64,000 nucleotides of DNA from assembly GCA_937890485.1 (NCBI GenBank), contig CALBXN010000010.1:1178-65177 (forward strand). The letters run 5' to 3'. Under the pieces are notes generated by a model. That model had not been told where the DNA came from. It saw only the letters and a program-made list of their open reading frames with translations, and did not search any database. Each line of letters begins with the position of its first letter. The stretch's first letter is position 1. The translations under genes and the position numbers were made by a program. Shown one piece after another: positions 3,306 through 30,680 of this stretch. The DNA is from an uncultured Treponema sp. Its GTDB lineage: Bacteria; Spirochaetota; Spirochaetia; Treponematales; Treponemataceae.

Positions 3306-3379
3306 GGACTCTTAGTTCAGTTGGTGAGAGCAATCGCCTCATAAGCGGTGGGTCGTGGGTTCAAGTCCCACAGAGTCCA
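3306..3379 (+). tRNA. tRNA with CAU anticodon (elongator Met or Ile2)
   Basis: Acceptor GGACTCT/AGAGTCC, D-arm TAGTTCAGTTGGTGAGAGC, anticodon stem ATCGC/GCGGT with loop CTCATAA, T-arm GTGGG-TTCAAGT-CCCAC. It lacks initiator features. Confidence 0.85.
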
Positions 3380-3463
3380 TTAAATATTTTGAGAAATATA
3401 TGACACATACAGAGAAGTATATGTTGTATGTGTCATTTTTATACTCATTTTTGAGGAAAGAAG

Positions 3464-4090: not shown

Positions 4091-4119
4091 GCCAAGTAAT
4101 TTCATCAAATATTATCCCC

Positions 4120-4317
4120 ATGAAGATATTAATTGGAGAAATATTATATAAGAGAAAAATTTCATATAGGCAGTTGTCTATTATGACAGGTATACCAAAA
4201 TCCACAATAGCAGATATATGCAACGGATTAACAGTACCAAGAATTGACACTTTAGAAACAATTGCAAAAGCATTGAATGTGCGTATTTCAGACTTATTTG
4301 ATAGTGATTTTAAATAA
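4120..4317 (+). CDS. XRE-family HTH transcriptional regulator
   Basis: ISYRQLSIMTGIPKSTIADICNG..PRIDTLETIAKALNVRISDLF. No obvious SD. Confidence 0.75.
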   Translation: MKILIGEILYKRKISYRQLSIMTGIPKSTIADICNGLTVPRIDTLETIAKALNVRISDLFDSDFK

Positions 4318-4494
4318 GTGTCCGAGTATTCGGACGATTATGTGGAAACACGTAAGATTGAAAAAATTGAATCGTATTTACTGTGAGAGGAGGAAAGTAA
4401 GGATAAGAATTGGACATGCGTCTAATTAATGTGCAAAAGATAAAGTTCAAATGGAGAAGTTAAAAATAAACAATTTATACGGGGTGTATGCATT

Positions 4495-5121
4495 ATGGGA
4501 GTGAAGAATTACACATTAGACGAAAGAATTTTATTAAATGAAAAATTACAACCTTACTTGGAACCTTATTATGAAAACGATGGTAAGAAACTCGTAAAGT
4601 TAGTAGATGAAATTCTCATGAGATTAAAGTATTACGATGTGGCAAAAGATGAATTTGTTTCGTTAGCTGACGAAATAATTGTAAATGCAATGTACGATTA
4701 CGATTTTAAACAGGATTTTAATGGTTACATCTACAGATGTTTGCAAAACAAATTTAAAACTGAGATGACCAGACGCAATCGTTATAAAAGACAAGCTGAT
4801 AGAATGGCTCTTTCATTGGAAGAAAAAGTCGGGAATGATGATAAAAACGTGACAATTGGCGAGTTAATAGCTGATAAAAAGACTGTTGAGAGTGAAATTT
4901 TTAAAGAAAAAAAGGAAGAATGGAGAAGAGAAGTTAAAGAGTATCTTGAAAAATTATCTCCACTCCAAAGAAAAATAGCATTTCTTATGTCTGATAATAA
5001 TACACCTGACGAGATATGCGAGGAATTACATATAACAATGAAACATTTTGAGAATTCTTTAAAAAGAATATTGTCAGATGAAAGAATTAAAATACTTAGA
5101 CCGATAGTAGAAAGGAATTAA
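4495..5121 (+). CDS. sigma-70 family-like RNA polymerase sigma factor
   Basis: Region-4-like HTH LSPLQRKIAFLMSDNNTPDEICEELHITMKHFENSLKRI and a region-2-like segment FNGYIYRCLQNKFKTEMTRRNR. Confidence 0.6.
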   Translation: MGVKNYTLDERILLNEKLQPYLEPYYENDGKKLVKLVDEILMRLKYYDVAKDEFVSLADEIIVNAMYDYDFKQDFNGYIYRCLQNKFKTEMTRRNRYKRQADRMALSLEEKVGNDDKNVTIGELIADKKTVESEIFKEKKEEWRREVKEYLEKLSPLQRKIAFLMSDNNTPDEICEELHITMKHFENSLKRILSDERIKILRPIVERN

Positions 5122-5124
5122 GAG

Positions 5125-6618
5125 ATGGAATTATTAAGAGACAAAATCAAAAGAGATACTTATATGGTGTCTAAACTTTGTGGAATGATTGCAAGAGGTG
5201 ATTTAAGAGATAATCATCCACAGCAGCGTAAATCAGGACAGTGGGATAATGCTACTCGTGATAATTTCATTGTTACAGTCATTAAAAATGAAGACTTTGA
5301 CCCTATTAAGATTTGTGAGCAACTTACAGATGAAGGAATTGTACTTTGGTTAATCGATGGACTTCAACGTTCTACTACTATTGAGAATTATAAGTCTGGC
5401 AAATTTAAACTTGGGAGAAATATTGACCCTTGTACTATTGAATATCAAGAAGCAGTAAAAGTAGATGGGAAAACAGTTTATCAGAATGTTTCTTATGATT
5501 TGAGAGGAAAAGCGTATAAAGATTTGCCTGAAAAACTAAAAGAAGACTTTGATAATTGTCCTGTGGATGTTAGAAAACACCTTGATTGTACGGATGAAGA
5601 AGTTGGTAGACATATCATTAGATATAACTCTGGACGAGCTATGGTAGTAGCGCAAAAGATTTCAGCTTATATGCATAATACCGCTAAATATGTAAAGAAA
5701 TTGTCTGGACATGCTTTCTTTAATGATTGTGCTAATTATTCTGACACTAAAGACAAAAATGGTGAAATTGATAAAGTAGTATCTGAATCAGTTATGGGAT
5801 TGAATTTCTTTGATTCTTGGAATAAACAAGCACAGAAAATTGGTAAACACTTAAATGAAAATGCAACAGAAGAGATGTTTAATAGTTTTGAGAATTATTT
5901 AGACAGACTTCTTGAAGTGGTTACACCTGATACTGGTAAGTTATTCACACCTAAAAATGCTTTACTTTGGTTCATGTTGTTTGATCGTTTTACTAAGAAT
6001 GGGTTAAGCGATGATAAATTCCAGTTGTTCTTAGAGAACTATGAAGAATTAAAGAAAGTAAAAGTAGAAGTAGAACATGAATATGAAGTGAAGAAAGGCA
6101 GTGGAGAAAAAACAAATATTCTTTCATTTTCCGAGTTAGATGCTTGTAAGTCTACAAAAGATAAAGGAGTTATTCTTGATAAATTACATATTCTTGAAAC
6201 CGTTATGAATGAATTTTTACATATTAATAATAACAATGAAGAAAAATCTATTGAAAAAGTAGAAACTGCTAACGAAGAAATCACAGAAGATGATGGATTA
6301 GAAGTATATATTTCTGAAATCACAGGTATTGACGTAGATACATTGCGTGAAAATCTCGATTGGTATATCTCAATGTTGGAAGATGAAAATGGTCTTAAAG
6401 ATAGATGTATTAGAGATGATTCCAGATTATTAAACAAAGATAATAGTCTTTCATTGTTGGCTATGGTGGCTTACGCAGAAAGTAAAGAAGAAAATCTTGA
6501 TGAATGGTTAACTGAATATGCGAAAAATAATGATGAATATTTATTTGACCAAGAGAAGAATTTCTTACATATGAAACAAGACTTTGATAAGTATTTGGAA
6601 GGGTTAGAGGTGGCATAG
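5125..6618 (+). CDS. DUF262 (ParB/Srx-fold, GmrSD N-terminal-like) domain protein
   Basis: QQRKSGQWD...LWLIDGLQRSTTI matches the DUF262 DGQQR-type motif. No C-terminal HNH/DUF1524 motif was seen. Confidence 0.6.
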   Translation: MELLRDKIKRDTYMVSKLCGMIARGDLRDNHPQQRKSGQWDNATRDNFIVTVIKNEDFDPIKICEQLTDEGIVLWLIDGLQRSTTIENYKSGKFKLGRNIDPCTIEYQEAVKVDGKTVYQNVSYDLRGKAYKDLPEKLKEDFDNCPVDVRKHLDCTDEEVGRHIIRYNSGRAMVVAQKISAYMHNTAKYVKKLSGHAFFNDCANYSDTKDKNGEIDKVVSESVMGLNFFDSWNKQAQKIGKHLNENATEEMFNSFENYLDRLLEVVTPDTGKLFTPKNALLWFMLFDRFTKNGLSDDKFQLFLENYEELKKVKVEVEHEYEVKKGSGEKTNILSFSELDACKSTKDKGVILDKLHILETVMNEFLHINNNNEEKSIEKVETANEEITEDDGLEVYISEITGIDVDTLRENLDWYISMLEDENGLKDRCIRDDSRLLNKDNSLSLLAMVAYAESKEENLDEWLTEYAKNNDEYLFDQEKNFLHMKQDFDKYLEGLEVA

Positions 6619-7506: not shown

Positions 7507-7659
7507 GTGAAAATATTAGAGAATATTGGGAAAAATATAAATAAACATTTTAAAGAGAAAAAAGAGAAATGTTGTATCTCATGTCATTGCAAAGATGATT
7601 GTGAAGATAAAGATAAAATTTTAAATTCGGATGATGATTCTTGCCCTTGGTATGCGTAA
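7507..7659 (+). CDS. hypothetical small Cys-rich protein (50 aa)
   Basis: Hand-translated GTG ORF (CCISCHCKDDCEDK...CPW) below the track cutoff. Confidence 0.3.
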   Translation: MKILENIGKNINKHFKEKKEKCCISCHCKDDCEDKDKILNSDDDSCPWYA

Positions 7660-7699
7660 CTATAACAATTAAATATGAAGTATTAGAAAGGATATTTTT

Positions 7700-7870
7700 A
7701 TGAGTAATCGTATGTTGCAGATGCAGTTGCGGGAAATAGAAGAATATAATAAGAAATCTGCTTTGTTGAACCCAAAAACCAGAGCTGAGTACATAAAGAG
7801 AACCAGAGAATTGGAAAAGAGGGAAGAGATGAGAAAGCAGTATTATAAGAAAACACGTTTATTAGGATAA
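7700..7870 (+). CDS. hypothetical small protein (56 aa)
   Basis: Hand-translated. SD AGAAAGGA upstream of ATG 7700. Confidence 0.45.
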   Translation: MSNRMLQMQLREIEEYNKKSALLNPKTRAEYIKRTRELEKREEMRKQYYKKTRLLG

Positions 7871-7909
7871 AATGTTGATTTTAAAGCAGAAAATATAGAG
7901 GAATGTACG

Positions 7910-8254
7910 ATGAAAAGAGTTAAATTTAACACAAATAAAACTGTAGATGTGGTTTGCAAGGAAATTGAACAGATGATTCCTTGTGTTTTAGGTACTAAAC
8001 CTAAGAAAGAAAAGAGAGATAAAGAGATAGTATATTATCCTGCTCGTAAATTTCTTGGAACAGATGACATGATGGATGATGTAAGTATTATTGTTAGAAA
8101 GGTAAATAACTCTTTGACTAATATCAAATTGGAATATTCTGAGTATTTTGAAAAAGAGTGTTCTTCATTTGGATTAAATTGGAGAGTTCCTGCTTTAAGA
8201 AAGGCATATTCAACACTTGAAAATATTTTGAGTCAGATGTTTAAACAGTCTTAG
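7910..8254 (+). CDS. hypothetical protein (114 aa)
   Basis: SD GAGGA upstream. No motif recognised. Confidence 0.6.
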   Translation: MKRVKFNTNKTVDVVCKEIEQMIPCVLGTKPKKEKRDKEIVYYPARKFLGTDDMMDDVSIIVRKVNNSLTNIKLEYSEYFEKECSSFGLNWRVPALRKAYSTLENILSQMFKQS

Positions 8255-8282
8255 AACACGAGTTCTATAAGGAGAATATGTA

Positions 8283-8477
8283 ATGAAAAGACGTAGAGTG
8301 GAAGTCACAGAAGATTATGTATATGAATCTTATGATCAATTCAAGAATCATCATAGAGAAATGGTTGAAGTAGGTTTTAGACCGCATTCATCATCAGATG
8401 TTCCTGAATACTATACTAATCATGAGATGGATAGTTATTATGTATCTTATGTTAAAAGTGTAGTAAACCAGTATTAA
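8283..8477 (+). CDS. hypothetical protein (64 aa)
   Basis: SD AAGGAG upstream. A GAAC-N4-GTTC box at 8254-8265 precedes it. Confidence 0.6.
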   Translation: MKRRRVEVTEDYVYESYDQFKNHHREMVEVGFRPHSSSDVPEYYTNHEMDSYYVSYVKSVVNQY

Positions 8478-8516
8478 TTTGGTCTTAAATATTTAATTTT
8501 CAAGAGAAAATGAGAG

Positions 8517-9284
8517 GTGATAAATATATCAGATAGAACAGGTGAAATCGGAAGAAATAATTTTGGAACAGAAATGAAAATCGTAGCATATCGCAGATAT
8601 GATGATATTGATGTGGAGTTTTTAGACGAACATCATTATGTAAAAGAACATAATACTTATTCTAATTTTAAATCAGGAGCAATTAAAAATCCTTATGACC
8701 GTTCTGTATACGGAGTTGGTTATGTAGGAGAAGGCAATCATATTATTATTCAGAATAAGAAAGTGTCGTTGTCTTATGAAGTTTGGTCTGAGATGCTTGC
8801 GAGATGTTATTTAGAAGATAGAAAACATTTGCATCCTGCATATTATGGGATAGTTATAGTCTGTGATGAATGGCAATGTTATCACAGATTTGCTGATTGG
8901 TATGAAGAACATACATACGAATGTGAGGGACGTTTACATTTGGACAAAGATATTCTCTATCCAGGTAATAAAATATATTCGCCAGAAACATGTGTATTAG
9001 TACCACAACGCATTAATATGTTATTTATGAATAAGCCCAATAAACGTGGCTTGCCAAATGGAATCACAAAATATGTTAATGGATATCTTGCTAAATATAA
9101 TGGACAAGAATTAGGTGTGTTTCCTACTTTAGAAGAAGCCTATCGTGAACAAACTAAGAAGAAAAAGGAAGCGATAGTACAAATTGCAAACGAATATAGA
9201 GAAGTAATACCTGAAAATGTTTACAAGGCGTTACTTGCATATGAATTTAAGATTGAAAATGATAAAAACTATGTAGCAGCGTAA
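8517..9284 (+). CDS. putative free-standing homing endonuclease with AP2-like DNA-binding domain (paralog 1 of 3)
   Basis: Paralogous to 28564-29385 and 38476-39222. Shared blocks: MKIVAYR..DIDV.F, CDEW..F..FADWYEE, GRLHLDKDI.YPGN..YSP..C, RGLPNGI..GYLAKYN..LGV.PT.EEAY (AP2-like). Confidence 0.55.
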   Translation: MINISDRTGEIGRNNFGTEMKIVAYRRYDDIDVEFLDEHHYVKEHNTYSNFKSGAIKNPYDRSVYGVGYVGEGNHIIIQNKKVSLSYEVWSEMLARCYLEDRKHLHPAYYGIVIVCDEWQCYHRFADWYEEHTYECEGRLHLDKDILYPGNKIYSPETCVLVPQRINMLFMNKPNKRGLPNGITKYVNGYLAKYNGQELGVFPTLEEAYREQTKKKKEAIVQIANEYREVIPENVYKALLAYEFKIENDKNYVAA

Positions 9285-16430: not shown

Positions 16431-16442
16431 GAGGTGGATAAT

Positions 16443-16907
16443 ATGGGATTTATATATAGACTTACAGATTTAACTGATAAAGAGAAGAAATATGTTGGTA
16501 TTATTCATACTAAAAATAGAACTTTAAAAGAAAGAATTGAAGAACATTTAAAAAAGGATTCATGGTGTTGGTCATCCCCTTATATGGTCGAATATATTGA
16601 AGATGATTTTAGTAGAACTGATGCAGAATATATTGAGTCACATCTGATAAATTTATATCAAACAGATAAATACTATAATCGAAGTAAAGCAAAATGGGGC
16701 ATTTCAAGGTATATATCAGATTTAGAAGATAAATGGCAATATTATGATGTAATTAATGCACATCTTTTGGAGAAAGAATTAGAGATATTGAAAAACAGAG
16801 TAAAAGAATTAGATAAACAAAATTCTTTCTACTTAGAAATATTGAATTACATAAAGACACAAGATAAACAAATCAAAATGTTTAAACATATATGCATGTC
16901 AAATTAA
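16443..16907 (+). CDS. GIY-YIG-like nuclease (paralog 1 of 2), probable free-standing homing endonuclease
   Basis: MGFIYRL...KKYVGII..R.LKERIEEH...AEYIESHLI; paralogous to 42290-43033. SD GAGGTGG before ATG 16443. Confidence 0.5.
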   Translation: MGFIYRLTDLTDKEKKYVGIIHTKNRTLKERIEEHLKKDSWCWSSPYMVEYIEDDFSRTDAEYIESHLINLYQTDKYYNRSKAKWGISRYISDLEDKWQYYDVINAHLLEKELEILKNRVKELDKQNSFYLEILNYIKTQDKQIKMFKHICMSN

Positions 16908-17348
16908 ATTTGGTCGTTGAACAAAGATAAAGTTGCTAAGACAATAGAGACTCTACAACATGGAACGAGTGGGATACCAACACATTAAACTATGGCGAAA
17001 TCCATGAGAGGTTTGCAGTAGGTGAGAAGCCTTGCACGACCAAAAAGAGAATAATTAAATAAGCACTCTGAAAAGTTTGGCGACCTACAGAGTGCTTACA
17101 CACATAACACAACACGAAAATCGCAAAGGATAAACGTATTGCTTACATATATTATACCAATTCTTTTAGCATTATTCAATGCGATTTTCCAAACAACTAT
17201 ATATAGTGGTTGATACTCTAAATATATACAATATGTAGACTTAAAACCACCATAGAATACTGCTTTTATGGCAGAAATTATTACATATCAAAGATAGGAG
17301 GAAAAGAGGTTTGAACGTTCACTAAATTGCAATTTACTCCTATAAAGA

Positions 17349-18026
17349 TTGGAAAGAAAAATTGAACAGATAACACATGAATTGGCATTAGAGTTTATCA
17401 TGCCAAAGCATTACGCAGGAAGAAAACCACAAGTAACAAAAGCATTTGGATGGTATGAAGATGACGAATTGGTTGCTGTTTGCACATTTGGTAAACCAGC
17501 TTCACCTCAATTATGTGATGGGATTTGTGGTAAAGAGTTTTCATCAAGCGTTTATGAGTTAAACAGATTGGTGAGGATAGAAGATTTTGATGGTCAGTTG
17601 AGTCAATTTATTGCAGGTTGTCTCAGAGAATTGAAGAAAGAAAATTGGATAGTTATTTCTTATGCTGATTCTGGAATGACACATCATGGTTACATATATC
17701 AAGCGAGTAATTTTCTATACACTGGTTGTACAAAACAGAGGACAGATAGGTATGTAGAAGGTAAACATTCAAGACATGCAGATTTTGATAACCCTAAAGG
17801 AATTAGGCAAGTGAGAACTGCAAAACATAGATATGTTTATTTTTGCACATCTGACAAGAAGTTGAAACGACAGTGGAAAGAAGCACTGAACTATCCGATT
17901 TTGCCTTACCCAAAGGGCGATAATGAGAATTATGAGTTGGGTAGGGTATATTCACAGGTATTAATTGACAAAGACAAGAACATTATACATAGAGAAAACG
18001 AATATGTAATGAAAATTACTACATAA
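17349..18026 (+). CDS. Mom-like (acyltransferase-fold) DNA modification protein
   Basis: A.EFI..HYAGR.P....FG.Y.D.ELVAVCTFGKP...YELNRL...ISYADSG..HHGYIYQASNF is the pattern I associate with the Mom family. TTG start without an SD. Confidence 0.5.
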   Translation: MERKIEQITHELALEFIMPKHYAGRKPQVTKAFGWYEDDELVAVCTFGKPASPQLCDGICGKEFSSSVYELNRLVRIEDFDGQLSQFIAGCLRELKKENWIVISYADSGMTHHGYIYQASNFLYTGCTKQRTDRYVEGKHSRHADFDNPKGIRQVRTAKHRYVYFCTSDKKLKRQWKEALNYPILPYPKGDNENYELGRVYSQVLIDKDKNIIHRENEYVMKITT

Positions 18027-18166
18027 AACGGCAATAGAAAAAGTGTTTTATCGAGATTTTTAACAACTAAATAGAGAAGTAATAAGTGAAAAATAAATCA
18101 GAAAGGATAAAAGTTAGGGTAGCTACTAAGGACATGTCACCTTTCTGGTGAAAAGTTATTAAGTAT

Positions 18167-18919
18167 ATGGGAAGTAAGAGTAGGATAGCAAAACATATTG
18201 TTCCTATCATACAGAATTACATAAACGAAAACAATGTAACTAAATATTATGAGCCATTTGTAGGTGGAGCTAATGTTATTGATAAGGTAACTTGCTCTAA
18301 GAAAATTGGTTCAGACCTAAATAAGTATCTTGTAGCTTTATTGAAGCACGTTGCTGAAGGTGGAGAATTGTATGAGTCTGTTGATAAAGAATTATACGAT
18401 AAGGCAAGAACTGCTTTCAACAATGGAGATACTTCTGAATTTGAAGATTGGCAAGTTGGTAACATAGGATTTATTGCCTCATATAATGGTCGTTGGTTTG
18501 ACGGTGGATATGCAAAGGCAGGATATGAGAAGACCAAGAATGGCGAAAGATACAGAGATTATTACAGAGAAGCAAAAGATAACCTTATGAAACAAGCACG
18601 AGACTTAAAAGGAATTAAGTTTGTTACATGCAACTATAAAAAGTTTAGTGAAAACTTAGATAATCATAACGGCTATGTTATTTACTGTGACCCACCATAT
18701 CAAGGAACAAAACAGTATGCAAATGCTACAGCTTTTGATTATGAAGAGTTTTGGCAGACAATGAGAGATTGGTCAAAGAATAATATTGTGTTGATTAGTG
18801 AACAGAATGCACCTGATGATTTTGAATGTATTTGGGAGCAGGAAGTTAGTAGGAGTATTAAAGCTGCAGATAAGAGCAAATCAACAGAGAAATTGTTTAA
18901 GTGGAATGGTGGTGTCTAA
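18167..18919 (+). CDS. Dam-like (D12 class) N6-adenine DNA methyltransferase
   Basis: N-terminal (KY)MGSKSRIA...YYEPFVGGANV (FxGxG) and the catalytic IYCDPPY motif. Confidence 0.8.
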   Translation: MGSKSRIAKHIVPIIQNYINENNVTKYYEPFVGGANVIDKVTCSKKIGSDLNKYLVALLKHVAEGGELYESVDKELYDKARTAFNNGDTSEFEDWQVGNIGFIASYNGRWFDGGYAKAGYEKTKNGERYRDYYREAKDNLMKQARDLKGIKFVTCNYKKFSENLDNHNGYVIYCDPPYQGTKQYANATAFDYEEFWQTMRDWSKNNIVLISEQNAPDDFECIWEQEVSRSIKAADKSKSTEKLFKWNGGV

Positions 18920-18920
18920 T

Positions 18921-19661
18921 ATGAAAGACATCGAATTATGGAATGGAGATTGCCTTGAGCTGATGTCAAATATTCCTGATAAATCGGTTGATATGATTTT
19001 CACAGACTTACCTTATGGAACGACTAACTGTAAATGGGATTCTATCATTCCTTTGGACGAGTTATGGGTTCATTACAAGAGAATTATTAAGGATAATGGA
19101 GCAATTTTATTATTTGCACAAACTCCGTTTGATAAGGTTTTGGGTTCTTCCAATCTGCAGATGTTGAAGTATGAGTGGATTTGGGAAAAGACACAAGCGA
19201 CTGGTCATCTTAATGCCAAGAAAATGCCTATGAAAGCACACGAAAATATCTTGGTATTTTACAAGAAGTTGCCTACATATAACCCACAAATGACTGAAGG
19301 ACATACACCAATTCACTCATATACCAAGTATGTTTCTACTCAGAATAACACTGAAATTTATGGAAGAATGAATAGAGAGATTAGTGGCGGTGGAGAAACT
19401 ACAAGATATCCAAGAAGTGTACTTACATACGCAAGCGATAAGCAGACTTGTTACTTGCATCCGACACAGAAGCCGTTGGCTCTATGCGAATATATGATTA
19501 AGACATACACAAACGAGGGTGATTTAGTAGTCGATTCTTGTATGGGTTCAGGAACTTGTGGTGTTGCAGCTAAGAAATTAGGCAGAAAATTCATAGGTAT
19601 TGAAAAAGAACCGCAATATTTTGAAATTTCTAAAAACAGAATACAAGATATAGTGGTATAA
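18921..19661 (+). CDS. N4/N6 DNA methyltransferase (N6_N4_Mtase family)
   Basis: DMIFTDLPYG catalytic motif, HPTQKP, and VVDSCMGSGTCGVAAKKLGRKFIGIE AdoMet-binding motif. ATG 18921 overlaps the previous stop (TAATATG). Confidence 0.85.
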   Translation: MKDIELWNGDCLELMSNIPDKSVDMIFTDLPYGTTNCKWDSIIPLDELWVHYKRIIKDNGAILLFAQTPFDKVLGSSNLQMLKYEWIWEKTQATGHLNAKKMPMKAHENILVFYKKLPTYNPQMTEGHTPIHSYTKYVSTQNNTEIYGRMNREISGGGETTRYPRSVLTYASDKQTCYLHPTQKPLALCEYMIKTYTNEGDLVVDSCMGSGTCGVAAKKLGRKFIGIEKEPQYFEISKNRIQDIVV

Positions 19662-23119: not shown

Positions 23120-23179
23120 TAAATAAATTCGAGATTTTAAGGAGAAAAATGGAGGTCAATGTGTCAGACCTATTTAATT

Positions 23180-23209
23180 TTGACACTTAACTGTTATAGA
23201 TATTATAAA
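23180..23209 (+). promoter_or_regulatory. host-type sigma-A promoter ahead of the ATPase/TerD cassette
   Basis: TTGACA (23180-23185), 18 nt spacer, TATAAA (23204-23209); alternatively a 17 nt spacer to TTATAA. Confidence 0.6.
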
Positions 23210-23238
23210 ACAAATCAAACAAGAGAAAGGAAGAGTGC

Positions 23239-25842
23239 ATGAAAGGATTAACAAGTAGTGAAGTATTAAGCAACAGAGAAAAGTATGGTAGCAATAAGTT
23301 GCCTGAACCAAAATTGAAGAAATGGTATGAATTTGCAAAAGAAGCATTGAGTGAAAAGATTACACTTATCCTTATTGCAATCGCGGTTGTTCAGTTGGTT
23401 CTTGCATTTATGGGAGTTATGGAATTCTCAGAGCCTATTATGATTATGGTAGTGTTTGGTATCGTAACTTGTATTGCTGTAAAAACTGGACTTGGTGTTC
23501 AGAAATCAGCAGCAGAATTGAGAGCGAAAACATCAGTAAGGTATTGTGATGTTATTCGTAATGGCAAAGTAGAAACTATTAACAAAGATGACATTGTAGT
23601 TGGTGATTTAGTTTGTCTTGGAATGGGACAAGAGATTTTTGCGGATGGTTATATCGTAGAAGGTAAGATTTCTGTGAATAACGCAGCTATCAATGGAGAA
23701 AGTAAAGAGTGTAAGAAGAAGCCAGTTGAAGGATATGTTCATCAGAAAACAACTTCAACAGATGCTTACACAAATGAAAATTGCCTATTCGCAGGTACAA
23801 CCGTTATGGCTGGCGAAGGCAAGATGATTGTAACAGATGTAGGTGTAAACACAGTCAATGGTGACACAATGGTAAAAATGCAGACATTGGAGGCACCTAA
23901 GACAGCGTTGGATATTGCACTCGACAATTTGAGTGAGTTTATTTCCAAGTGGGGAACAATCGCGGCTATTTTAACATTCATCATTCTTACAGTTTCAGGA
24001 ATTGCAAAAGTAGGATTTAGTGAGTATTTTGCAGACAGTGTATTTAATATCGTTCAGAAGTTTGCACAGAACTTCTCAGTAGCATTAACAATCATTGTAG
24101 CAGCCGTTCCAGAAGGACTCCCTCTGATTGTAAAACTTGTTACAAAGCAGAATGTAAAGACAATGGAGAGATTTAATATCTTAGCAAAGAATCCAAATAA
24201 GATTCCAGAACTTGCTTATGTGGATATTATCTGCACTGATAAGACAGGAACATTAACAACTGGAATTATGAGTCCTAAGACAATCGTTGATGGAGAAGGT
24301 AATAGTGTAAATAAAGAGTCTACACTTTGGGATGTAATTAAGAGAAATATTCTTTTGAACAATAGTGCAACATTTGATAGTGAAGGAAATATCACAGGTG
24401 GTAACTCAATTGACAGAGCTGTTCTTAGTCTTGTAGAAGCTAATGAATATGTAACAGTTTTGAAGAATTGTACTATGAAGGACAAGCAGGTATTTAACAG
24501 CTCAAACAAGTATTCAGCTTTTACTTCAAATGATGGTGATACATATTACAAGGGCGCACCTGAAAGAATTATTGGTTCTTGTTCTAAGGTAATGAGAGAA
24601 GATGGAACTGTATGTGATTTCACTCCACAGATGATAGAAAACTTAAATAATACCATCAAGGAAATGACATCAAAATCAATCAGATGTATTGCTTTATCTA
24701 CTAAGAACGAAGACTTAGTTGAGAATGAGCTTCCAACAGAAATGACATTACTTGGCATTATTGGTGTTGTTGACCCTGTAAGAGCAGAAGTTCCTCATGC
24801 AGTAGAAGTTGCTCATAAGGCAGGTATTCAGGTAATCGAGATTACTGGTGACTGTATTGAAACAGCTATCGCAGTTGCAAAGGAATGTGGAATTTACAAA
24901 GATGGCGATGTTGCTTTAACAAATGATGAGTTTGAAGCAATGACAGATGAAGAAGTAAAGAGCGTAATCCCTTCATTAAGAGTTATCTCAAGATGTTCGC
25001 CAAACACAAAACTTCGTCTTGTAACACTTGCACAGGAAATTGGTAAGTCGGTTGCTATGACAGGCGATGGCGTTAATGACTCACCTGCATTAAAGAGAGC
25101 AGACGTTGGTTTTGGTATGCAGAGTGGTAGCGATGTTGCCAAAGAAGCAAGCGACATTGTGTTAACAGATGATAACTTCGCTTCAACTGTAAAGGCAGTA
25201 GAGTTAGGTAGAACATTTATGCACAACATTATGATGTTCCTTGAATTCCAGTTACCTATCAATATCTCACTGTTAGTTTTAAGTATTGTATATCCTTTAA
25301 TTGCATCAGGTGCATCAATCTTAGCGTCAGTACAGATTTTGATTGTAAACATTATTATGGATTCACTTAACTCACTTTCATTTGGTGGCGAACCTCCAAA
25401 GGAAGAATATATGTTAGAAACACCTATTAAGAAAGGTTCTGGTTTATTTATCAGAGGTGCTAAGACAAGAATTGCAGTTGGTGCTTGTTCATTCATTGGT
25501 ATCTACGCATTATTTACGCTTAGTCCTATTGGTAATTTATTCGCAACAGATGCAGAAAGTTTAACAGCAAGATTTGCGATGTTATGTTTCATGGCTGTAT
25601 TTAATGGTTTCAACATTAGAACAGAGCGTATGAATCTGTTCCACGGATTAGGTAATAACAAGTTGTTTAGTAAAATTGCATTGGGTATTTTCGTAGGAAC
25701 TATCGCACTTTGCTCAGTAGCAGGGGAACTCATTAAGGTAACATCATTAGATGTAATGCATTGGTTAGTAATTATTGGACTTTCATTTATTGTAATTCCA
25801 GTAGATTTAGTAAGAAAAGATATTAATACAAAGAAGAATTAA
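23239..25842 (+). CDS. P-type ATPase, P2 (Ca2+-ATPase-like) subfamily
   Basis: PEGLP (TM4), ICTDKTGTLT phosphorylation site, TGDCIETA, MTGDGVNDSPALKRADVG hinge, and a Cation_ATPase_N-like N-terminus. 867 aa. Confidence 0.9.
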   Translation: MKGLTSSEVLSNREKYGSNKLPEPKLKKWYEFAKEALSEKITLILIAIAVVQLVLAFMGVMEFSEPIMIMVVFGIVTCIAVKTGLGVQKSAAELRAKTSVRYCDVIRNGKVETINKDDIVVGDLVCLGMGQEIFADGYIVEGKISVNNAAINGESKECKKKPVEGYVHQKTTSTDAYTNENCLFAGTTVMAGEGKMIVTDVGVNTVNGDTMVKMQTLEAPKTALDIALDNLSEFISKWGTIAAILTFIILTVSGIAKVGFSEYFADSVFNIVQKFAQNFSVALTIIVAAVPEGLPLIVKLVTKQNVKTMERFNILAKNPNKIPELAYVDIICTDKTGTLTTGIMSPKTIVDGEGNSVNKESTLWDVIKRNILLNNSATFDSEGNITGGNSIDRAVLSLVEANEYVTVLKNCTMKDKQVFNSSNKYSAFTSNDGDTYYKGAPERIIGSCSKVMREDGTVCDFTPQMIENLNNTIKEMTSKSIRCIALSTKNEDLVENELPTEMTLLGIIGVVDPVRAEVPHAVEVAHKAGIQVIEITGDCIETAIAVAKECGIYKDGDVALTNDEFEAMTDEEVKSVIPSLRVISRCSPNTKLRLVTLAQEIGKSVAMTGDGVNDSPALKRADVGFGMQSGSDVAKEASDIVLTDDNFASTVKAVELGRTFMHNIMMFLEFQLPINISLLVLSIVYPLIASGASILASVQILIVNIIMDSLNSLSFGGEPPKEEYMLETPIKKGSGLFIRGAKTRIAVGACSFIGIYALFTLSPIGNLFATDAESLTARFAMLCFMAVFNGFNIRTERMNLFHGLGNNKLFSKIALGIFVGTIALCSVAGELIKVTSLDVMHWLVIIGLSFIVIPVDLVRKDINTKKN

Positions 25843-25862
25843 TCACAAGGAGGAAGAAAATT

Positions 25863-26441
25863 ATGTCTATTAGCTTAGTAAAAGGTCAGAAAATTGATTT
25901 AACAAAGGGTAACAGTGGTTTAACAAAAGTCATATTCGGTTTGGGTTGGGATACCAACCGATACGATGGAAATGCAGATTTTGACTTAGATGTATCTGCA
26001 TTTCTTACAGACAACACGGGTAAGGTAACTGGCGACACAGATTTCGTATTCTACAATCAGCCACAGCATCCAAGTGGAGCAATTATCTATTCTGGTGACA
26101 ATCAGACAGGTGTTGGTAACGGTGATGATGAAACATTTACTATTGATTTGACCAGAATCCCATCCAATATCGAAAGAATTAGTTTCGCAGCAACTATTTA
26201 TGATGCAGAAAACAGATTACAGAATTTTGGAATGGTAGATAATTCTTACATTAGAGCATATGACGCAAATACAAATGAAGAATTATTTAAGTATGAACTC
26301 AATGAAGATTTTTCATTAGAGACTGGAATTGTAGCTGGTGAATTGTATCGCAAGAACGGTGAGTGGAAGTTCAATGCTGTCGGTTCTGGCTACAGTGGTG
26401 GTTTGGCAACAATCGCAAGAAATTACGGATTAAACATTTAA
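25863..26441 (+). CDS. terD: TerD-domain stress protein (paralog 1)
   Basis: MSISLVKGQKIDLTK...GLGWD...FDLDVSAF...SGDNQTGVGNGDDETFTIDL...GEWKFNAVG. Confidence 0.9.
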   Translation: MSISLVKGQKIDLTKGNSGLTKVIFGLGWDTNRYDGNADFDLDVSAFLTDNTGKVTGDTDFVFYNQPQHPSGAIIYSGDNQTGVGNGDDETFTIDLTRIPSNIERISFAATIYDAENRLQNFGMVDNSYIRAYDANTNEELFKYELNEDFSLETGIVAGELYRKNGEWKFNAVGSGYSGGLATIARNYGLNI

Positions 26442-26459
26442 TTAAGGAGGATAACGAAT

Positions 26460-27032
26460 ATGTCAGTAAGTTTAGTAAAGGGTCAGAAGATTAATTTATC
26501 AAAGGAAGTAGAAGGATTAAGCAAGGTAGTAGTAGGTCTTGGTTGGGACGCTGCTAAAAAGGGATTGTTTGGTCAGAAGTATGATATTGACTGTGATGCA
26601 TCTGTAATCGTATTAGGAGCAAATGATTCTTATAGAGGTGTTGCATACTATGGCGAAAGAAAGTTAGAGAGTGGATGCGTTTATCATCATGGAGACAACT
26701 TAACTGGTGACGGAGATGGTGATGATGAACAGATTACAGTTGATTTAAAGAAGATGCCAAGTTCCGTTGAGAAGGTAGTGTTTGTAGTTAATATCTACAA
26801 CTGTGAATCAAGAAAACAGGATTTTGGAATGATTAAGAATGCATTTATCCGATTGGTTGATGAAACAACTGGTAAGGAAATTTGTAAGTATAACCTTTCT
26901 GAAAACTATTCTGGCAAAACAGCAATGGTATTTGCAGAAGTATATAAGAAGGATAATGAGTGGAGATTCAATGCAATCGGTCAGGGAACAACTGATAAGA
27001 GTATCAGTGAAATGGCTAGAAAGTACAAGTAG
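26460..27032 (+). CDS. terD: TerD-domain stress protein (paralog 2)
   Basis: MSVSLVKGQKINLSK...GLGWD...HGDNLTGDGDGDDEQITVDL...NEWRFNAIG. Confidence 0.9.
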   Translation: MSVSLVKGQKINLSKEVEGLSKVVVGLGWDAAKKGLFGQKYDIDCDASVIVLGANDSYRGVAYYGERKLESGCVYHHGDNLTGDGDGDDEQITVDLKKMPSSVEKVVFVVNIYNCESRKQDFGMIKNAFIRLVDETTGKEICKYNLSENYSGKTAMVFAEVYKKDNEWRFNAIGQGTTDKSISEMARKYK

Positions 27033-27041
27033 GAGGTATTT

Positions 27042-27623
27042 ATGTCAGTAAGTTTAGCAAAAGGCGAAAGAGTTAGTTTAACAAAGGATAGATCATCTCT
27101 TAATAAGATTTTGGTTGGTCTTGGTTGGGATGTTAATCATTATGATGGCGAATCTAGTTTTGATTTAGACGCATCCGTGTTTATGACAAAGGCAAATGGC
27201 AAGGTAGGAAATGATGGAGATTTTATTTTCTATGGAAATCTTGCACATTCAACAAAGAGTGTTGTACATACTGGCGATAATCGTACAGGCGAAGGAAGTG
27301 GAGATGATGAAGTTATTAAGGTAAAACTTAATAGTATTCCATCTGATTACACCAATTTAGCAGTAGCAGTAACAATTTACGATGCTCAGACAAGACTTCA
27401 GAATTTTGGCATGGTCAACAATGCTTATATCAGAATCGTTGATGAAGAGACAAATGAAGAGGTACTTAGATATGATTTAAGTGAAGACTTTTCTACAGAG
27501 ACGGCATTGGTTGTTGCAGAGATTTATAAGCACAACGGAGAATGGAAGTTTAAGGCAGTAGGAAGTGGTTATAACGGAGGATTGCAGACACTTTGTTCTC
27601 AGTATGGTATTGATGCGGAGTAG
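27042..27623 (+). CDS. terD: TerD-domain stress protein (paralog 3)
   Basis: MSVSLAKGERVSLTK...GLGWD...TGDNRTGEGSGDDEVIKVKL...GEWKFKAVG. Confidence 0.9.
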   Translation: MSVSLAKGERVSLTKDRSSLNKILVGLGWDVNHYDGESSFDLDASVFMTKANGKVGNDGDFIFYGNLAHSTKSVVHTGDNRTGEGSGDDEVIKVKLNSIPSDYTNLAVAVTIYDAQTRLQNFGMVNNAYIRIVDEETNEEVLRYDLSEDFSTETALVVAEIYKHNGEWKFKAVGSGYNGGLQTLCSQYGIDAE

Positions 27624-27632
27624 GAGGACATT

Positions 27633-28382
27633 ATGACAAATTTTATGTTTATTGTTTTGGTTATTATTGCGATTGTAGCAATTATTGCTTTCTTCAACAC
27701 ACCGTTTGGTAAGCAGTTAAGAGTAAAAGCAAAGGGTAGAACTGATGAGGTTATGAGACAAGATGCCTCTACACCAGAAGGTGCAAGAGATTATTACAAC
27801 GCAGCCATTAGAGATAAGGAAGAATTTTATAACAAAGCATCTGCTACTTTTGCTGAGATTTCTGGAAAGTTAGATTCGGCAGAAAAGGAATTATATCAGT
27901 CTAATAAGGACATTATGAGAATTACACAGCAGATTAACGCTTGTCTTGATGAAAATAATGAAGAAAGTGCTATGTCTTATGCTATGAAAAAGGCAACTCT
28001 TGAAAGCAAAATTAATGTGTTAAAAGATACTATTGAAGAAATGAAACAGGCAAAAGCACATCAGAAAGAAATTCGTGACCAAGCTGCTACTGATTTGCAG
28101 AAGTTAAAAGAAGAGAAGGAACAGGTTCTTTTCCAGATGGAAGCAGATAGTCAGATTATTCAGTTACATCAGAGTATGGATAGTATGAATATCAATAACG
28201 AAACTGAGAGAATGCTTGACAGAGTTCGTGAAGGTGCAAGAAAGACTAGAGAAAGAGCAGAAGGTAGTCGTATTGCCTATGATACAAGTAGTCAAGCGCA
28301 GGATAGACGTTTAGAAGTATCTGAAAGAGAAAGAAATGCTAGACAGATGTTAGAAGAAATGAAGCGTCAGAGAGGTAAGTAA
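27633..28382 (+). CDS. membrane-anchored coiled-coil protein, PspA/IM30-like (tentative)
   Basis: N-terminal TM helix FMFIVLVIIAIVAIIAFF. The long helical region (ESAMSYAMKKATLESKINVLKDTIEEMK) resembles PspA helix 2-3. Confidence 0.45.
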   Translation: MTNFMFIVLVIIAIVAIIAFFNTPFGKQLRVKAKGRTDEVMRQDASTPEGARDYYNAAIRDKEEFYNKASATFAEISGKLDSAEKELYQSNKDIMRITQQINACLDENNEESAMSYAMKKATLESKINVLKDTIEEMKQAKAHQKEIRDQAATDLQKLKEEKEQVLFQMEADSQIIQLHQSMDSMNINNETERMLDRVREGARKTRERAEGSRIAYDTSSQAQDRRLEVSERERNARQMLEEMKRQRGK

Positions 28383-28474
28383 TGATTGTATTAAATCTTG
28401 GTGTATTTGTTTTGTGTCTTGTAGGATTTTTCTTTGCAGGATACATAGCAGGAAGACGTAATAAGTCTAAGTAA
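28382..28474 (+). CDS. 30-aa single-pass membrane peptide
   Basis: Hand-translated MIVLNLGVFVLCLVGFFFAGYIAGRRNKSK. Its ATG overlaps the upstream stop (TAATG), suggesting translational coupling. Confidence 0.4.
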   Translation: MIVLNLGVFVLCLVGFFFAGYIAGRRNKSK

Positions 28475-28483
28475 TTATCTTTG

Positions 28484-28511
28484 CTTTGCGTGGTGTCATA
28501 GCCACGCAGAG
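28484..28511 (+). terminator. hairpin / weak terminator closing the cassette
   Basis: 10-bp stem CTTTGCGTGG/CCACGCAGAG (one G-U pair). Poor U-tract. Confidence 0.4.
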
Positions 28512-28563
28512 TATTCGGTGAAATGAACCACATTGTAATAGGAAGAAACTGGTTTAAATCACC

Positions 28564-29385
28564 ATGAAAAATAAACTGAGAGGAGTGAATTACATAAGAG
28601 GAATTAAAGGAAGTCCAGATATAAGCAAAATAGGTGAAATTAGAAACAATAGTAAAGGTACACCGATGAAAATTGTTGCATATAGGAACTCAGAAGATAT
28701 TGATGTGCAGTTTCAAGATAAGTTTTATTACATAAAAGAACATCAGACATATAGCAATTTTAAAGCAGGTGTTATTAAGAATCCTTATGACAGAACAGTA
28801 TTTGATGTTGGGTATTTAGGTGTTGGAAGACACAAAATTCAATATCCTGAAACGATGACAAATACAAAAGTGTATATGTCTTGGAAGAATATGCTTGATA
28901 GATGTTACTGTGAAAGACATAAAGAAAAGAATCCTTGCTATTTTGAAATATCAACAGTGTGTGATGAATGGCATAACTTCCAAAATTTCGCAGATTGGTA
29001 CGAAGAAAGAGAATATGAAACTGAAGGAAGATTACATTTAGATAAGGATATCAAATATCCTGGCAATACGGTATATAGCCCACAAACTTGTATATTAACT
29101 CCTCAAAAAATAAATATGATGTTTGTTAATAAGTCAAATAACAGAGGTCTTCCGAATGGAATTGTTAAGCAAGGCAAGGGATATTTGGCTAAATATAACC
29201 ATGAGCATTTGGGTGTATATCCAACTGTAGAAGAAGCATATTATCGTCAGACTCAGAAAAAGAAAGAGGCAATCATAGAATTAGCGGATGATTACAGAAA
29301 TAGAAATATCATTCCACAATATATCTATGACATTGTTGTAGCTTATGAGTTTGATATTAGAAATGATAGAAACTATGTTGCATAG
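28564..29385 (+). CDS. putative homing endonuclease with AP2-like domain (paralog 2 of 3)
   Basis: Same conserved blocks as 8517-9284. No SD at ATG 28564, so the start is uncertain. Confidence 0.55.
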   Translation: MKNKLRGVNYIRGIKGSPDISKIGEIRNNSKGTPMKIVAYRNSEDIDVQFQDKFYYIKEHQTYSNFKAGVIKNPYDRTVFDVGYLGVGRHKIQYPETMTNTKVYMSWKNMLDRCYCERHKEKNPCYFEISTVCDEWHNFQNFADWYEEREYETEGRLHLDKDIKYPGNTVYSPQTCILTPQKINMMFVNKSNNRGLPNGIVKQGKGYLAKYNHEHLGVYPTVEEAYYRQTQKKKEAIIELADDYRNRNIIPQYIYDIVVAYEFDIRNDRNYVA

Positions 29386-29399: not shown

Positions 29400-30680
29400 T
29401 TGTTAGAAGTAATTGAGATTTTCAAAAAGATACAGAATACGAGTGGTCTTAATGATAAAAAGGCTATTGTAACTGCAAATAAAGATAATGAATTATTCAA
29501 GAAATGCTTGGTGTTCTTGCTGAGTCCACACGTTTTAACTGGCATTTCAGATAAGAAGATACATAAAAAGGTAGAGCCTAGTTCCGAATTAGCACCATAT
29601 TATCTGTGTAAAATTAGCACGTTTGAAGAAGTTATGGACTATTTGGAGAAGAATAACACAGGTAAGGATGAGGATATTTACGAAGTACAAGCATTTTTGA
29701 GTGGTCATGAAGATGATAGAGAGTTCTATGAACAGATGATTACCAAGAAATTTAGACTTGGAGCTGATGCGAAGTTAGTAAATGCTTGTATAGAAGGTCT
29801 TATTCCTACATTTGACTGTATGTTAGGAACATCAATTGAAAAGTGTAAGATTCCAGAAGGTACTTGGTTCTCATTAAGTCATAAGTTAAATGGTAATCGT
29901 TGTTTATATTACAATGGCGATTTCTATACAAGACAAGGAAAGTTATACACAGGATTAGAACATATCAAAACAGACCTTGAACATTTATCAAATGCAAAGA
30001 GTTTTGTCTTTGATGGAGAACTTATTTATAAGAACCATGAAGGATTAACAGACTCCGCTGCGTTTCAGAAGGGTACTGGTATAGCAAATAGTAAGAATGA
30101 TACTAAGACAGAATTAAAGCTTGTGCTTTTTGATGTTCTTCCAAGAGAAGAATTTGATAAGGGTATTTCAAGAGATACATATAAGAATCGAAGAATGAAA
30201 CTCAATAAGTTGAGAGAACTTGAAACAGAAAACTTTGAAGTAGTGACTATGTTCTACGAAGGAACTGACCAATCTGAGATTTGGAAGTGGTTAGACTACG
30301 CAGAACAACATGATATGGAAGGATTGATGTTATCTTTAGATGCCCCTTATGAGTGTAAGCGTACTAAGAACTTGATTAAGGTCAAGAAGTTTTACGATTT
30401 TGATTTGAGAATCATTGATTGTGAAGAAGGAACTGGACGTAACAAAGGTAGATTAGGTGCTTTTGTAGTTGATTATAAGGGCAATCGTGTAAATGTTGGG
30501 TCAGGTTTCAGTGACGAAGAGCGTGATAAGTATTGGGAAAATAGAGAAGAACTTATTGGAAGAGTAATCACAGTTAAATATAAGGAAATCAGCAGAGATA
30601 AAAAGACTGGATTAGAGAGTCTACAATTCCCTATCTACTGTGGATTGAGGGAGATTGGTAAAGAGCCTAGCTATGACTAG
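29400..30680 (+). CDS. ATP-dependent DNA ligase
   Basis: Nucleotidyltransferase motifs: I SHKLNGNR (KxxGxR), III FVFDGELIY, IV EGLMLSL, V LIKVKK. TTG start 9 nt after AGGAG. Confidence 0.8.
   Translation: MLEVIEIFKKIQNTSGLNDKKAIVTANKDNELFKKCLVFLLSPHVLTGISDKKIHKKVEPSSELAPYYLCKISTFEEVMDYLEKNNTGKDEDIYEVQAFLSGHEDDREFYEQMITKKFRLGADAKLVNACIEGLIPTFDCMLGTSIEKCKIPEGTWFSLSHKLNGNRCLYYNGDFYTRQGKLYTGLEHIKTDLEHLSNAKSFVFDGELIYKNHEGLTDSAAFQKGTGIANSKNDTKTELKLVLFDVLPREEFDKGISRDTYKNRRMKLNKLRELETENFEVVTMFYEGTDQSEIWKWLDYAEQHDMEGLMLSLDAPYECKRTKNLIKVKKFYDFDLRIIDCEEGTGRNKGRLGAFVVDYKGNRVNVGSGFSDEERDKYWENREELIGRVITVKYKEISRDKKTGLESLQFPIYCGLREIGKEPSYD

Follow-up and report, generated by a model that had tools for sequence, protein, structure and literature searches.

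The 64 kb stretch of DNA from contig CALBXN010000010.1 analysed here (referred to as the window; all coordinates are window-based, and L-numbers label related loci) carries a 5.3 kb operon of six genes whose products are a P-type ATPase resembling Ca2+ pumps, three TerD paralogs, a membrane-anchored protein with distant likeness to PspA/IM30 and a membrane peptide of 30 amino acids (aa). The six genes are a real, self-contained evolutionary unit. The reading that we favour, tentatively and as somewhat short of probable, is that this cassette is a Ter-type envelope-stress system in a phage-borne variant, the products of which would cooperate as a sub-membrane module for Ca2+ handling and membrane integrity. 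Its parts are already known and the cassette is not categorically new; the new element is the fused arrangement.

Conservation and exchange of the cassette

The six tightly coupled genes described in an earlier reading of this DNA, which was made without database searches (the sequence-only reading), were confirmed as open reading frames (ORFs). The first five are separated by gaps of 20, 18, 9 and 9 nt, and a ribosome-binding site of the AGGAGG type is present in every gap; the stop codon of the PspA-like gene and the start codon of the peptide gene overlap as TAATG, and the ribosome-binding site GAAAGGAAG directly precedes the start codon of the ATPase gene. Hidden Markov model searches for the protein families named by that reading were positive for the ATPase, for TerD and, marginally, for PspA_IM30. 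The PHROGs database holds families for all three protein types, two of which are labelled "unknown function".

Relatives of the cassette were found only at the protein level or in IMG/VR, and a megablast search of the cassette against GenBank phages gave no match. IMG/VR contained about 150 loci with the ATPase at 66-84% identity, on contigs of 100-250 kb, and 199 loci with the PspA-like gene; together these loci represent 111 distinct viral sequences with phage flanks. Some of the relatives in IMG/VR, several in number, come from the genomes of isolates. The combination of genes singled out by the sequence-only reading recurs almost without exception, the ATPase and TerD genes standing directly upstream of the PspA-like gene in 148 of 149 evaluable loci. 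Three TerD genes are present in 117 of these 148, a TerF-type von Willebrand factor A (vWA) protein together with one TerD in 26 (variant B), and three TerD genes plus a vWA protein in the remaining 5. The order TerD1-TerD2-TerD3 was invariant (124 of 124 loci). The single exception among the 149 loci is a deletion remnant, L099, in which all that is left, at 7638-8839, is the 3' part of TerD3 together with the PspA-like and peptide genes. A decayed cassette was also seen at L014 10001-13389, where the ATPase and TerD1 are followed by unrelated genes including one for NAD synthase.

The genes of the cassette were found in 144-162 of 165 related loci (the ATPase in 159, with a median identity of 77%; the PspA-like protein with a median identity of 80%). 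The immediate flanking genes of the window, by comparison, occurred in at most 11 loci, and other backbone genes in at most 44, at 28-63% identity. The ratio of nonsynonymous to synonymous substitution rates (dN/dS) was 0.03-0.15 across the cassette (0.06-0.15 for the ATPase, about 0.05-0.11 for TerD2) with saturated dS, and such low ratios at saturated synonymous sites indicate that the conservation is due to selection and not to recent spread.

The limits of the unit were given by L081, a contig from a Lachnospiraceae metagenome-assembled genome (MAG) that shares 95% DNA identity with the window over 23124-28572 between unrelated flanks. The homology begins just past the stop codons of the upstream gene and stops at about 28572-28575, four codons into the downstream ORF, and the exchanged module is hence made up of the leader, the six genes, the 3' hairpin and the start of the next gene.

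These data bear on whether the arrangement might be an artefact or a passenger, i.e. an assembly chimera or a recently captured host operon without function for the phage. Among species-representative genomes the window has one close match, a 378 kb contig from a Lachnospiraceae MAG of goat cecum, and mis-binning of phage contigs into MAGs is known (PMC12880540). This explanation is effectively refuted by the 111 distinct viral sequences with phage flanks, by saturated dS with low dN/dS, by the lack of a compositional break and by the remnant L099, which shows that decay is visible when it occurs. The sequence-only reading had itself allowed for a chimera or for proteins without profile matches; strong matches and phage flanks were found instead.

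Proteins, leader and hairpin of the operon

The ATPase matched the Pfam models E1-E2_ATPase (1.9e-32), Cation_ATPase_C (1.4e-27) and Cation_ATPase_N (3e-10) as well as Hydrolase. The motifs reported in the sequence-only reading are present (PEGLP at residue 291, with E292; DKTGT at 334, with D334; GDGVND at 609), together with TGD at 536, and its assignment to the Ca2+ pumps is backed by the best matches in the PDB, PMCA-type ACA8 (8qmp, 3e-103) and LMCA1 of Listeria (3e-96). The ATPase shares with these two pumps all catalytic motifs and the PMCA-type ion-site residues. The sequence AVPEGLPL in transmembrane helix 4 (TM4) is identical to that of ACA8, VNIIMD in TM6 aligns to VNLIMD of ACA8 (N704, D708), and PINISLL in TM5, aligned with TVNVAAL of ACA8, has no acidic residue. 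The TM5 glutamate of site I, E771 in SERCA, is missing in PMCA-type pumps. As TM4 and TM6 are like those of ACA8 and TM5 is without the glutamate, the residues follow the single-site PMCA/LMCA1 pattern, and the protein would be a single-site Ca2+ exporter of this type. The NCBIfam equivalog model for PMCA-type pumps (TIGR01517) was passed marginally, with 507.1 bits against a cut-off of 507.05, and the PMR1 and SERCA models scored far under their cut-offs. The calmodulin-binding autoinhibitory extension of the eukaryotic PMCA and ACA pumps is absent from the protein of 867 aa, the alignment of which begins at residue 139 of ACA8; in this respect it resembles the bacterial LMCA1. It differs from LMCA1, PMCA and ACA alike in being phage-encoded and linked in an operon to TerD.

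Each of the three TerD paralogs covers the whole of the 187-position Pfam model PF02342, and TerD1 aligns end to end with TerD of Klebsiella (2KXT, 2e-58; the match to 3IBZ is likewise about 1e-58). The paralogs are 43-54% identical pairwise, TerD2 being the most divergent. The acidic motif GDNxTGxGxGDDE, to which the sequence-only reading had drawn attention, is intact at residue 78 in all three and aligns with GDNRTGEGDGDDE of the Klebsiella protein. Klebsiella TerD binds Ca2+ through acidic motifs, and the three paralogs are predicted to be Ca2+-binding as well.

For the fifth protein the sequence-only reading had proposed one TM helix followed by a PspA/IM30-like helical region. The helix and the helical region were recovered: the AlphaFold2 (AF2) model is all-helical, with a mean predicted local distance difference test score (pLDDT) of 81.5, and places a TM helix at residues 2-22, after which come a basic linker, a short helix and two long helices at 48-106 and 110-248. 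The relationship to PspA is distant, and the N-terminal amphipathic helix alpha0 of PspA is replaced by the hydrophobic TM helix. The match to Pfam PspA_IM30 (1.1e-8; 35.3 bits against a gathering score of 33.9) spans model positions 27-220 of 220, and relatives of the protein score 29-32 bits, which is under the threshold. The protein matches phrog_33389 at 2.3e-30. In a Foldseek search of the PDB the top matches were Vipp1 (8qbs, 6zvr) and PspA (4whe) with a probability of 1.0 and an E-value of about 0.02, at which unrelated coiled coils scored similarly. A profile of the family found no chain at E <=1 among the PDB sequences, and from 1.84e9 representatives it retrieved 239 clusters, all of the TM-anchored type in the sample read, and no canonical PspA. 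Since the profile finds no PDB chain and only these 239 clusters of one TM-anchored type, the fifth protein is, by profile comparison, a small distinct subfamily that is distantly PspA/IM30-like. What it shares with PspA, IM30, Vipp1 and LiaH is the match over nearly the whole PspA_IM30 model, and the top structural matches to its predicted long helical region are those weak ones to Vipp1 and PspA; the partners PspB, PspC, PspF and LiaI of the PspA and LiaH systems are not found in the cassette. A systematic survey of the partners of PSP (phage shock protein) systems does not include calcium, P-type ATPases, tellurite, vWA or viruses (PMC11237479). No match to the protein was found by tblastn against plasmids.

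The hydrophobic ORF at the end of the operon, noticed in the sequence-only reading for its TAATG overlap, corresponds to an ORF of 27-31 aa (MIVLNIG...GKRKK) in about 70 loci, where the overlap with the preceding stop codon is 1 or 4 nt in every case. Its dN/dS of 0.28-0.39 at a dS of about 1 indicates that it is a real gene. By analogy only, the peptide may be likened to the PspB and LiaI anchors and to the regulins of P-type ATPases (sarcolipin, KdpF, MgtS): like these small TM partners it is single-pass and of about 30 aa, and its gene shares an operon with that of a P-type ATPase and is translationally coupled to the PspA-like gene. The soluble domains of all products should face the cytoplasm, because basic residues follow each TM helix, the TerD proteins have no signal peptide and the catalytic domains of the ATPase are cytoplasmic.

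The operon is closed by a hairpin, as the sequence-only reading had stated, and this element proved to be specific to the cassette and to covary. It has a predicted folding energy of -23.8 kcal/mol (z = -4.2) and a GUCAUA loop inside the conserved core GGUGUCAUAGCC. The hairpin occurs once per locus in 85 loci, directly 3' of the peptide gene and nowhere else in those loci. Compensatory double changes were found at 9 of the 13 stem pairs, with 94.9% of cells paired compared to 27-46% in slid controls, and the many G-U pairs place it in the sense-strand RNA. No U-tract or T-run follows the hairpin, the terminator scanner made no call, and Rfam has no family for it. A generic phage terminator was rejected, given that each locus has a single copy of the loop motif, which in every case follows the cassette; two other near-matches to the loop motif in the window do not fold. 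The hairpin may stabilise the 3' end of the mRNA, terminate transcription in part or be bound by a protein. In many relatives (L002, L005, L006, L009-L011, L013, L017 and others) a second inverted repeat of about 15 bp (ACACCATATATAGT...ACTATATATGGTGT) lies about 40-90 nt past the hairpin of the cassette; it is absent from the window.

The near-consensus promoter sequence that the sequence-only reading placed before the operon is present within the 119-nt gap upstream of the ATPase gene (TTGACA at 23180-23185, an 18-nt spacer and TATAAA at 23204-23209). It was missed by the consensus scanner because its -10 box lacks the terminal T. It is the sole sigma-70 match of at least 11/12 on the plus strand of the window, where about 3.1 per strand are expected by chance. 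The same element occurs at 10/12 in L081, L001 and L040, and relatives of the L046/L147 type carry a perfect TTGACA-N16-TATAAT. Of 74 distinct upstream regions, however, only about 6 contained a site of at least 10/12, and 24 of 73 relatives leave no more than 33 nt between the end of the preceding gene and the ATPase start. For these reasons the putative own promoter is a feature of a sub-lineage and not of the cassette in general. A 13-codon ORF in the leader (23149-23190, MEVNVSDLFNFDT), which has a strong AAGGAG ribosome-binding site and ends within the -35 box, is probably not a gene and was rejected as such, its reading frame not being kept in the few relatives that share the leader.

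The promoter-like site bears on the possibility that the cassette is a true moron that protects lysogens and is transcribed in the prophage from its own host-type promoter, with superinfection exclusion or bacteriocin resistance as the outcome. The lysogen would then resist other phages, pore-forming bacteriocins or toxic anions in the way that a plasmid ter operon does. The phenotypes of ter operons, i.e. phage inhibition and colicin resistance, would fit, as would the best plus-strand sigma-70-like site lying in a leader that is exchanged together with the genes, the perfect site in the L046/L147-type relatives and the movement of the cassette between unrelated flanks. Superinfection exclusion was also proposed for phage Ter operons by Iyer et al. 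(PMC7824862). The rarity of the site and the closely spaced upstream genes argue against a moron, and so do the common strand shared with all 64 kb of early and replication genes, the hairpin without a U-tract, the barely raised G+C content (36.0% compared to 32.7%) and the lack of a match in PADLOC. We consider this explanation unlikely, with a real chance of being right nonetheless. Of the moron-like unit postulated in the sequence-only reading, the self-contained and exchanged module stands, and the marks of independent transcription are partly supported.

Relation to known systems and putative function

TerD proteins are widespread, and for decades the Ter system has been without a clear mechanism; cells with the ter operon are protected from pore-forming colicins and from some phages. 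TerD was found in 125 GenBank phage records. The gut-virome fragment MT836648 encodes a classical Firmicute cluster (phosphoribosyltransferase (PRTase)/TRSP, StiP, YceG, TelA and three TerD), Bacillus phage YungSlug has two TerD genes and TerC, and phage ME3 has vWA-TerF, TerC/DUF475, TerD and PRTases. Acinetobacter phage ME3 had emerged from BFVD as a lead for an adjacency of Ter and PspA and was rejected, as none of eight proteins of its Ter region contains a PspA domain. The cassette shares with the classical systems the tandem trio of TerD genes (54-58% identical to the TerD proteins of MT836648), which likewise stands beside genes for a helical membrane-associated protein and a membrane transport-type protein. 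The three TerD proteins may correspond to YceC/D/E of B. subtilis. It differs from the classical Firmicute-type and terZABCDEF clusters in being without TerC, TelA, YceG, TerB and PRTase/HAD genes, the membrane and helical partners being replaced by the P-type ATPase and the PspA-like protein. No TerC match was found in the cassette or in about 40 scanned ORFs of the window and no TelA match in the window, and the PRTase/HAD genes present in MT836648 and ME3 are absent from the cassette and the scanned flanks. A TerF/TerY-type vWA protein is also absent from the window, whereas a TerF-type vWA/copine-like protein was found in 31 related loci (vWA-TerF-like match in the variant cassettes at 2.8e-60).

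Ter operons of jumbo phages were described by Iyer et al. in 2021, who proposed that Ter systems form sub-membrane structures against incoming phages and xenobiotics (PMC7824862). The phage Ter operons, including that of YungSlug, are like the cassette in being abbreviated and in their proposed action at the membrane against competitors; they combine TerD with TerC/DUF475, TerF-vWA, TelA and sometimes PRTases, and none has been described with a P-type ATPase or a PspA-like protein.

The link between ATPase and TerD extends to more distant phages. MT840059 (L226) encodes a P-type ATPase 35% identical to that of the window followed by three TerD genes, and a third ATPase lineage (33-37% identity) was found in 13 large or huge viral contigs of 67-355 kb (L227-L239), in all of which 2-4 TerD genes adjoin the ATPase gene. 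The gene orders in this lineage are TelA-TerDx3-ATPase (L228 type), helical protein-ATPase-TerDx3 (L230 type) and ATPase-TerDx4, with examples at L228 3910-9968, L230 6507-11889 and L227 7338-12561. MT840059 and the 13 contigs show that the ATPase-TerD link recurs across deep divergence, and the TelA-containing type indicates that TelA and the PspA-like protein occupy equivalent positions. The helical protein upstream of the ATPase in the L230 type has 220 aa. Alignment with hhalign gave no relationship of the PspA-like family to TelA or to this 220-aa protein.

The sequence-only reading was aware of no description of the combination as a unit, which holds for the fused ATPase-TerD-PspA-like operon, not found in the literature searched, and does not hold for its elements, since phage Ca2+ ATPases, a terD-pspA-like operon (PMC12880540) and jumbo-phage Ter systems (PMC7824862) are known. 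Ca2+ P-type ATPases "not detected previously in phages" were reported in Jug (jumbo gut) phages (Sci Adv 2026, PMC12880540), in which a terD-pspA-like operon and a Ca2+ ATPase operon are separate and both highly transcribed in the gut (PMC12880540). Such ATPases also occur in 81 other huge phages and in four phages of 159-197 kb, some of them Bacillota-like (PMC12880540); a Ca2+ ATPase of Chlorella virus, cited in the same study, belongs to a eukaryotic virus. Jug phages are likewise gut phages with a Ca2+-type ATPase, several TerD proteins and a pspA-like gene beside terD. In these phages the ATPase gene lies in a separate operon with an upstream gene for 77-91 aa and TerD is encoded elsewhere, whereas the window has one translationally coupled operon, which additionally includes the TM-anchored PspA-like protein, the 30-aa peptide and a conserved 3' hairpin.

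Because the pump, TerD and a PspA-like protein or TelA share one operon in several divergent phage lineages, the linkage of a Ca2+-type pump with TerD and a helical partner argues strongly, through guilt by association, that Ter-type stress protection has to do with the handling of Ca2+ where the membrane is damaged. On the favoured reading of a Ter-type envelope-stress module, for which we infer the Ca2+ specificity, the cooperation of the parts, the timing of expression and the benefit to the phage, the proteins would act together at the inner membrane face of the infected, or possibly lysogenic, cell. The envelope would be breached by phage entry, by pore-forming bacteriocins or by membrane-targeting abortive-infection effectors of the host, and Ca2+ would leak in. 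The three TerD paralogs would bind it as buffers or sensors, and the pump would bring cytosolic Ca2+ back down. The anchored PspA-like scaffold and its peptide partner would meanwhile stabilise the bilayer and the proton-motive force, so that the cell would hold its energy supply until the phage has replicated. PspA is a protein that preserves the integrity of the membrane and its proton-motive force.

Several observations weigh against this reading. The ATPase passes the PMCA equivalog model by only 0.05 bits, the PspA/IM30 membership of the fifth protein is marginal, and the TerD protein of variant B has an insertion within the Ca2+ motif. No defence model in PADLOC-DB was matched, the only match being that of a coiled-coil region to AbiEii, which is weak and at chance level (E 0.0026). 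Furthermore, the TM-PspA-like protein may be a general companion of phage membrane transporters and not a Ca2+-linked effector. Distant members of its family were found in 55 other large-phage loci without TerD or P-type ATPase, where a second operon (L168-L222, e.g. L186 6041-10403; GenBank MT835556, L167 at about 1469-5528) encodes a conserved ATP-binding cassette (ABC) importer. In this operon a BPD_transp_1 permease and an ABC ATPase come first, a helical protein of about 185 aa (MxFFEKxGLVE...) precedes the TM-PspA-like protein, and the last product has about 525 aa with TM, NMT1-type binding and OmpA domains; neither TerD nor a P-type ATPase was found within 8 kb. As this importer operon also carries it, the PspA-like family is recurrently paired with phage-encoded transporters.

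This pairing would suit a generic companion and thereby an auxiliary set for ion homeostasis, in which the pump lowers cytosolic Ca2+ of the host for replication or altered physiology, the TerD proteins are buffers, and the role of the PspA-like protein and the peptide is limited to easing the stress that large amounts of an inserted transporter with ten TM helices put on the membrane. The Jug ATPase, which is highly transcribed, was interpreted in this sense (PMC12880540). Left unexplained would be TelA in the position of the PspA-like protein in another ATPase-TerD lineage, the TerF-type vWA proteins that join the cassette and the strong selection on each of three distinct TerD proteins, and we regard an ion-homeostasis set as doubtful.

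We think it rather improbable, too, that the cassette is a Ca2+-triggered machine for membrane repair, in which the TerD proteins, and in the variants the copine-like vWA protein, would sense Ca2+ influx through a membrane lesion and recruit or activate the anchored, ESCRT-III-like PspA homologue at that site while the pump resets cytosolic Ca2+. If this were true, the cassette would be a viral and prokaryotic counterpart of the eukaryotic wound repair by Ca2+/ALG-2/annexin and ESCRT-III, it would serve phages in overcoming bacteriocins and abortive-infection effectors that form pores, and the role of TerD would be that of a Ca2+ sensor for membrane-remodelling partners (PspA-like or TelA).

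With the linkage of pump, TerD and PspA-like protein or TelA, the long-standing question of what TerD does becomes one for direct experiment, as the operon is compact and self-contained and can be directly expressed and dissected. In phages of Firmicutes and in some huge phages, the phage Ca2+ ATPases reported in 2025-2026 belong to a larger module, and a distinct TM-anchored PspA-like family appears as a recurrent companion of phage-encoded membrane transporters. Should the module counter pore-forming defence or bacteriocins, it would represent a new class of phage counter-defence or of lysogen fitness factor in abundant gut Clostridia.

Genomic surroundings of the cassette

Judged by its sequence, the window belongs to a large phage or prophage with distant likeness to SPbeta, whose host is a low-GC gut Firmicute, probably one of the Lachnospiraceae. 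The assignment rests on a replication block at 46-60 kb that encodes a Pol III alpha-type polymerase 39% identical to YorL of SPbeta as well as DnaB, primase and exonucleases. The identity of a Jug phage of Bacteroides, to which the 378 kb MAG contig had pointed, was ruled out by this SPbeta-like replication module and by the different operon layout of Jug phages. All gene-like ORFs of at least 100 aa in the window are on the plus strand, and the G+C content of about 32-33% shows no break at the cassette, where it is slightly raised. The positions of the cassette and its neighbours are listed in Table 1.

Table 1. Positions in the window of the elements of the exchanged module and of neighbouring genes
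Feature	Position	Strand	Evidence or remark
5' leader of the module	23124-23238	+	Homology with L081 starts at 23124
PMCA/LMCA1-like P-type ATPase of type II (IIB-like), putatively Ca2+-type, 867 aa	23239-25842	+	Pfam, NCBIfam and PDB matches
TerD paralog 1, 192 aa, cytoplasmic, predicted Ca2+-binding	25863-26441	+	Pfam TerD 5.3e-78; motif GDNQTGVGNGDDE
TerD paralog 2, 190 aa	26460-27032	+	Pfam TerD 1.4e-69; motif GDNLTGDGDGDDE
TerD paralog 3, 193 aa	27042-27623	+	Pfam TerD 2.3e-81; motif GDNRTGEGSGDDE
TM-anchored PspA/IM30-like (ESCRT-III-superfamily-like) protein, 249 aa	27633-28382	+	Pfam PspA_IM30, marginal
Single-pass membrane peptide, 30 aa, MIVLNLGVFVLCLVGFFFAGYIAGRRNKSK	28382-28474	+	Conserved ORF
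RNA hairpin, 13-bp stem	28482-28513	+	Covariation, folding energy
3' end of the exchanged module	28514-28575	+	Includes ribosome-binding site and first codons of the next gene
GIY-YIG endonuclease	16434-16907	+	Upstream of the cassette
Mom-like protein	17349-18026	+	Upstream of the cassette
D12/Dam-type methyltransferase	18167-18919	+	Upstream of the cassette
N6/N4 DNA methylase	18798-19661	+	Upstream of the cassette
HNH endonuclease	28564-29385	+	HNH endonuclease PHROGs 5.6e-46
ATP-dependent DNA ligase	29400-30680	+	3' of the HNH gene

The genes at 16434-19661 are, by their predicted products, a DNA-modification and anti-restriction cluster of typical early functions. In relatives the cassette lies amid RNA-repair genes (L082-L087, e.g. 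L082 1-1241 and 13330-20747; L062 8952-9986 and 15190-15636), namely Pnkp-like AAA_33/Metallophos/RNA_lig_T4_1, RlaP and Thg1, and near genes for NAD+ salvage (NAMPT, NAD synthase and isochorismatase/nicotinamidase) and a NADAR gene. This neighbourhood looks like an accessory region of the counter-defence type. The Mom-like protein and the two methylases of the window, together with RNA repair, NAD+ salvage, NADAR and Thg1 in the relatives, suggest that the context is an early host-takeover or counter-defence region.

The surroundings also bear on a control of lysis timing, in which holin-type permeabilisation of the membrane would be tuned by the PspA-like protein together with the small TM peptide and Ca2+ handling would be secondary. 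PspA counters loss of proton-motive force and small TM peptides are often part of lysis systems. The cassette, however, stands amid early, DNA-modification and replication genes with no adjacent holin or endolysin gene, its strict linkage is to the ATPase and TerD genes, and we hold such a role to be highly improbable.

The homing endonuclease that the sequence-only reading saw downstream of the operon was identified as an HNH endonuclease (Table 1). Its gene, which lies between the cassette and the DNA ligase gene, has counterparts in just 11 related loci, with about 36% identity and in different places, and probably arrived recently as a mobile insertion. The ligase, tried as a synteny anchor in IMG/VR, gave no match. 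Upstream, the listed coordinates of the two methylase ORFs share about 120 nt, and the start codon of one of them therefore probably lies further downstream. A 703-aa protein encoded at 12155-14266 matches phrog_1735 at 4e-262, and has no Pfam match; among the backbone genes close to the cassette, its gene is the one best conserved in relatives (63% identity, 36 loci). A tyrosine recombinase of 271 aa was also found in the neighbourhood of the cassette in relatives, and the window includes two phage tRNA genes, tRNA-Gln (TTG) and tRNA-Met (CAT), at 2985-3062 and 3306-3379.

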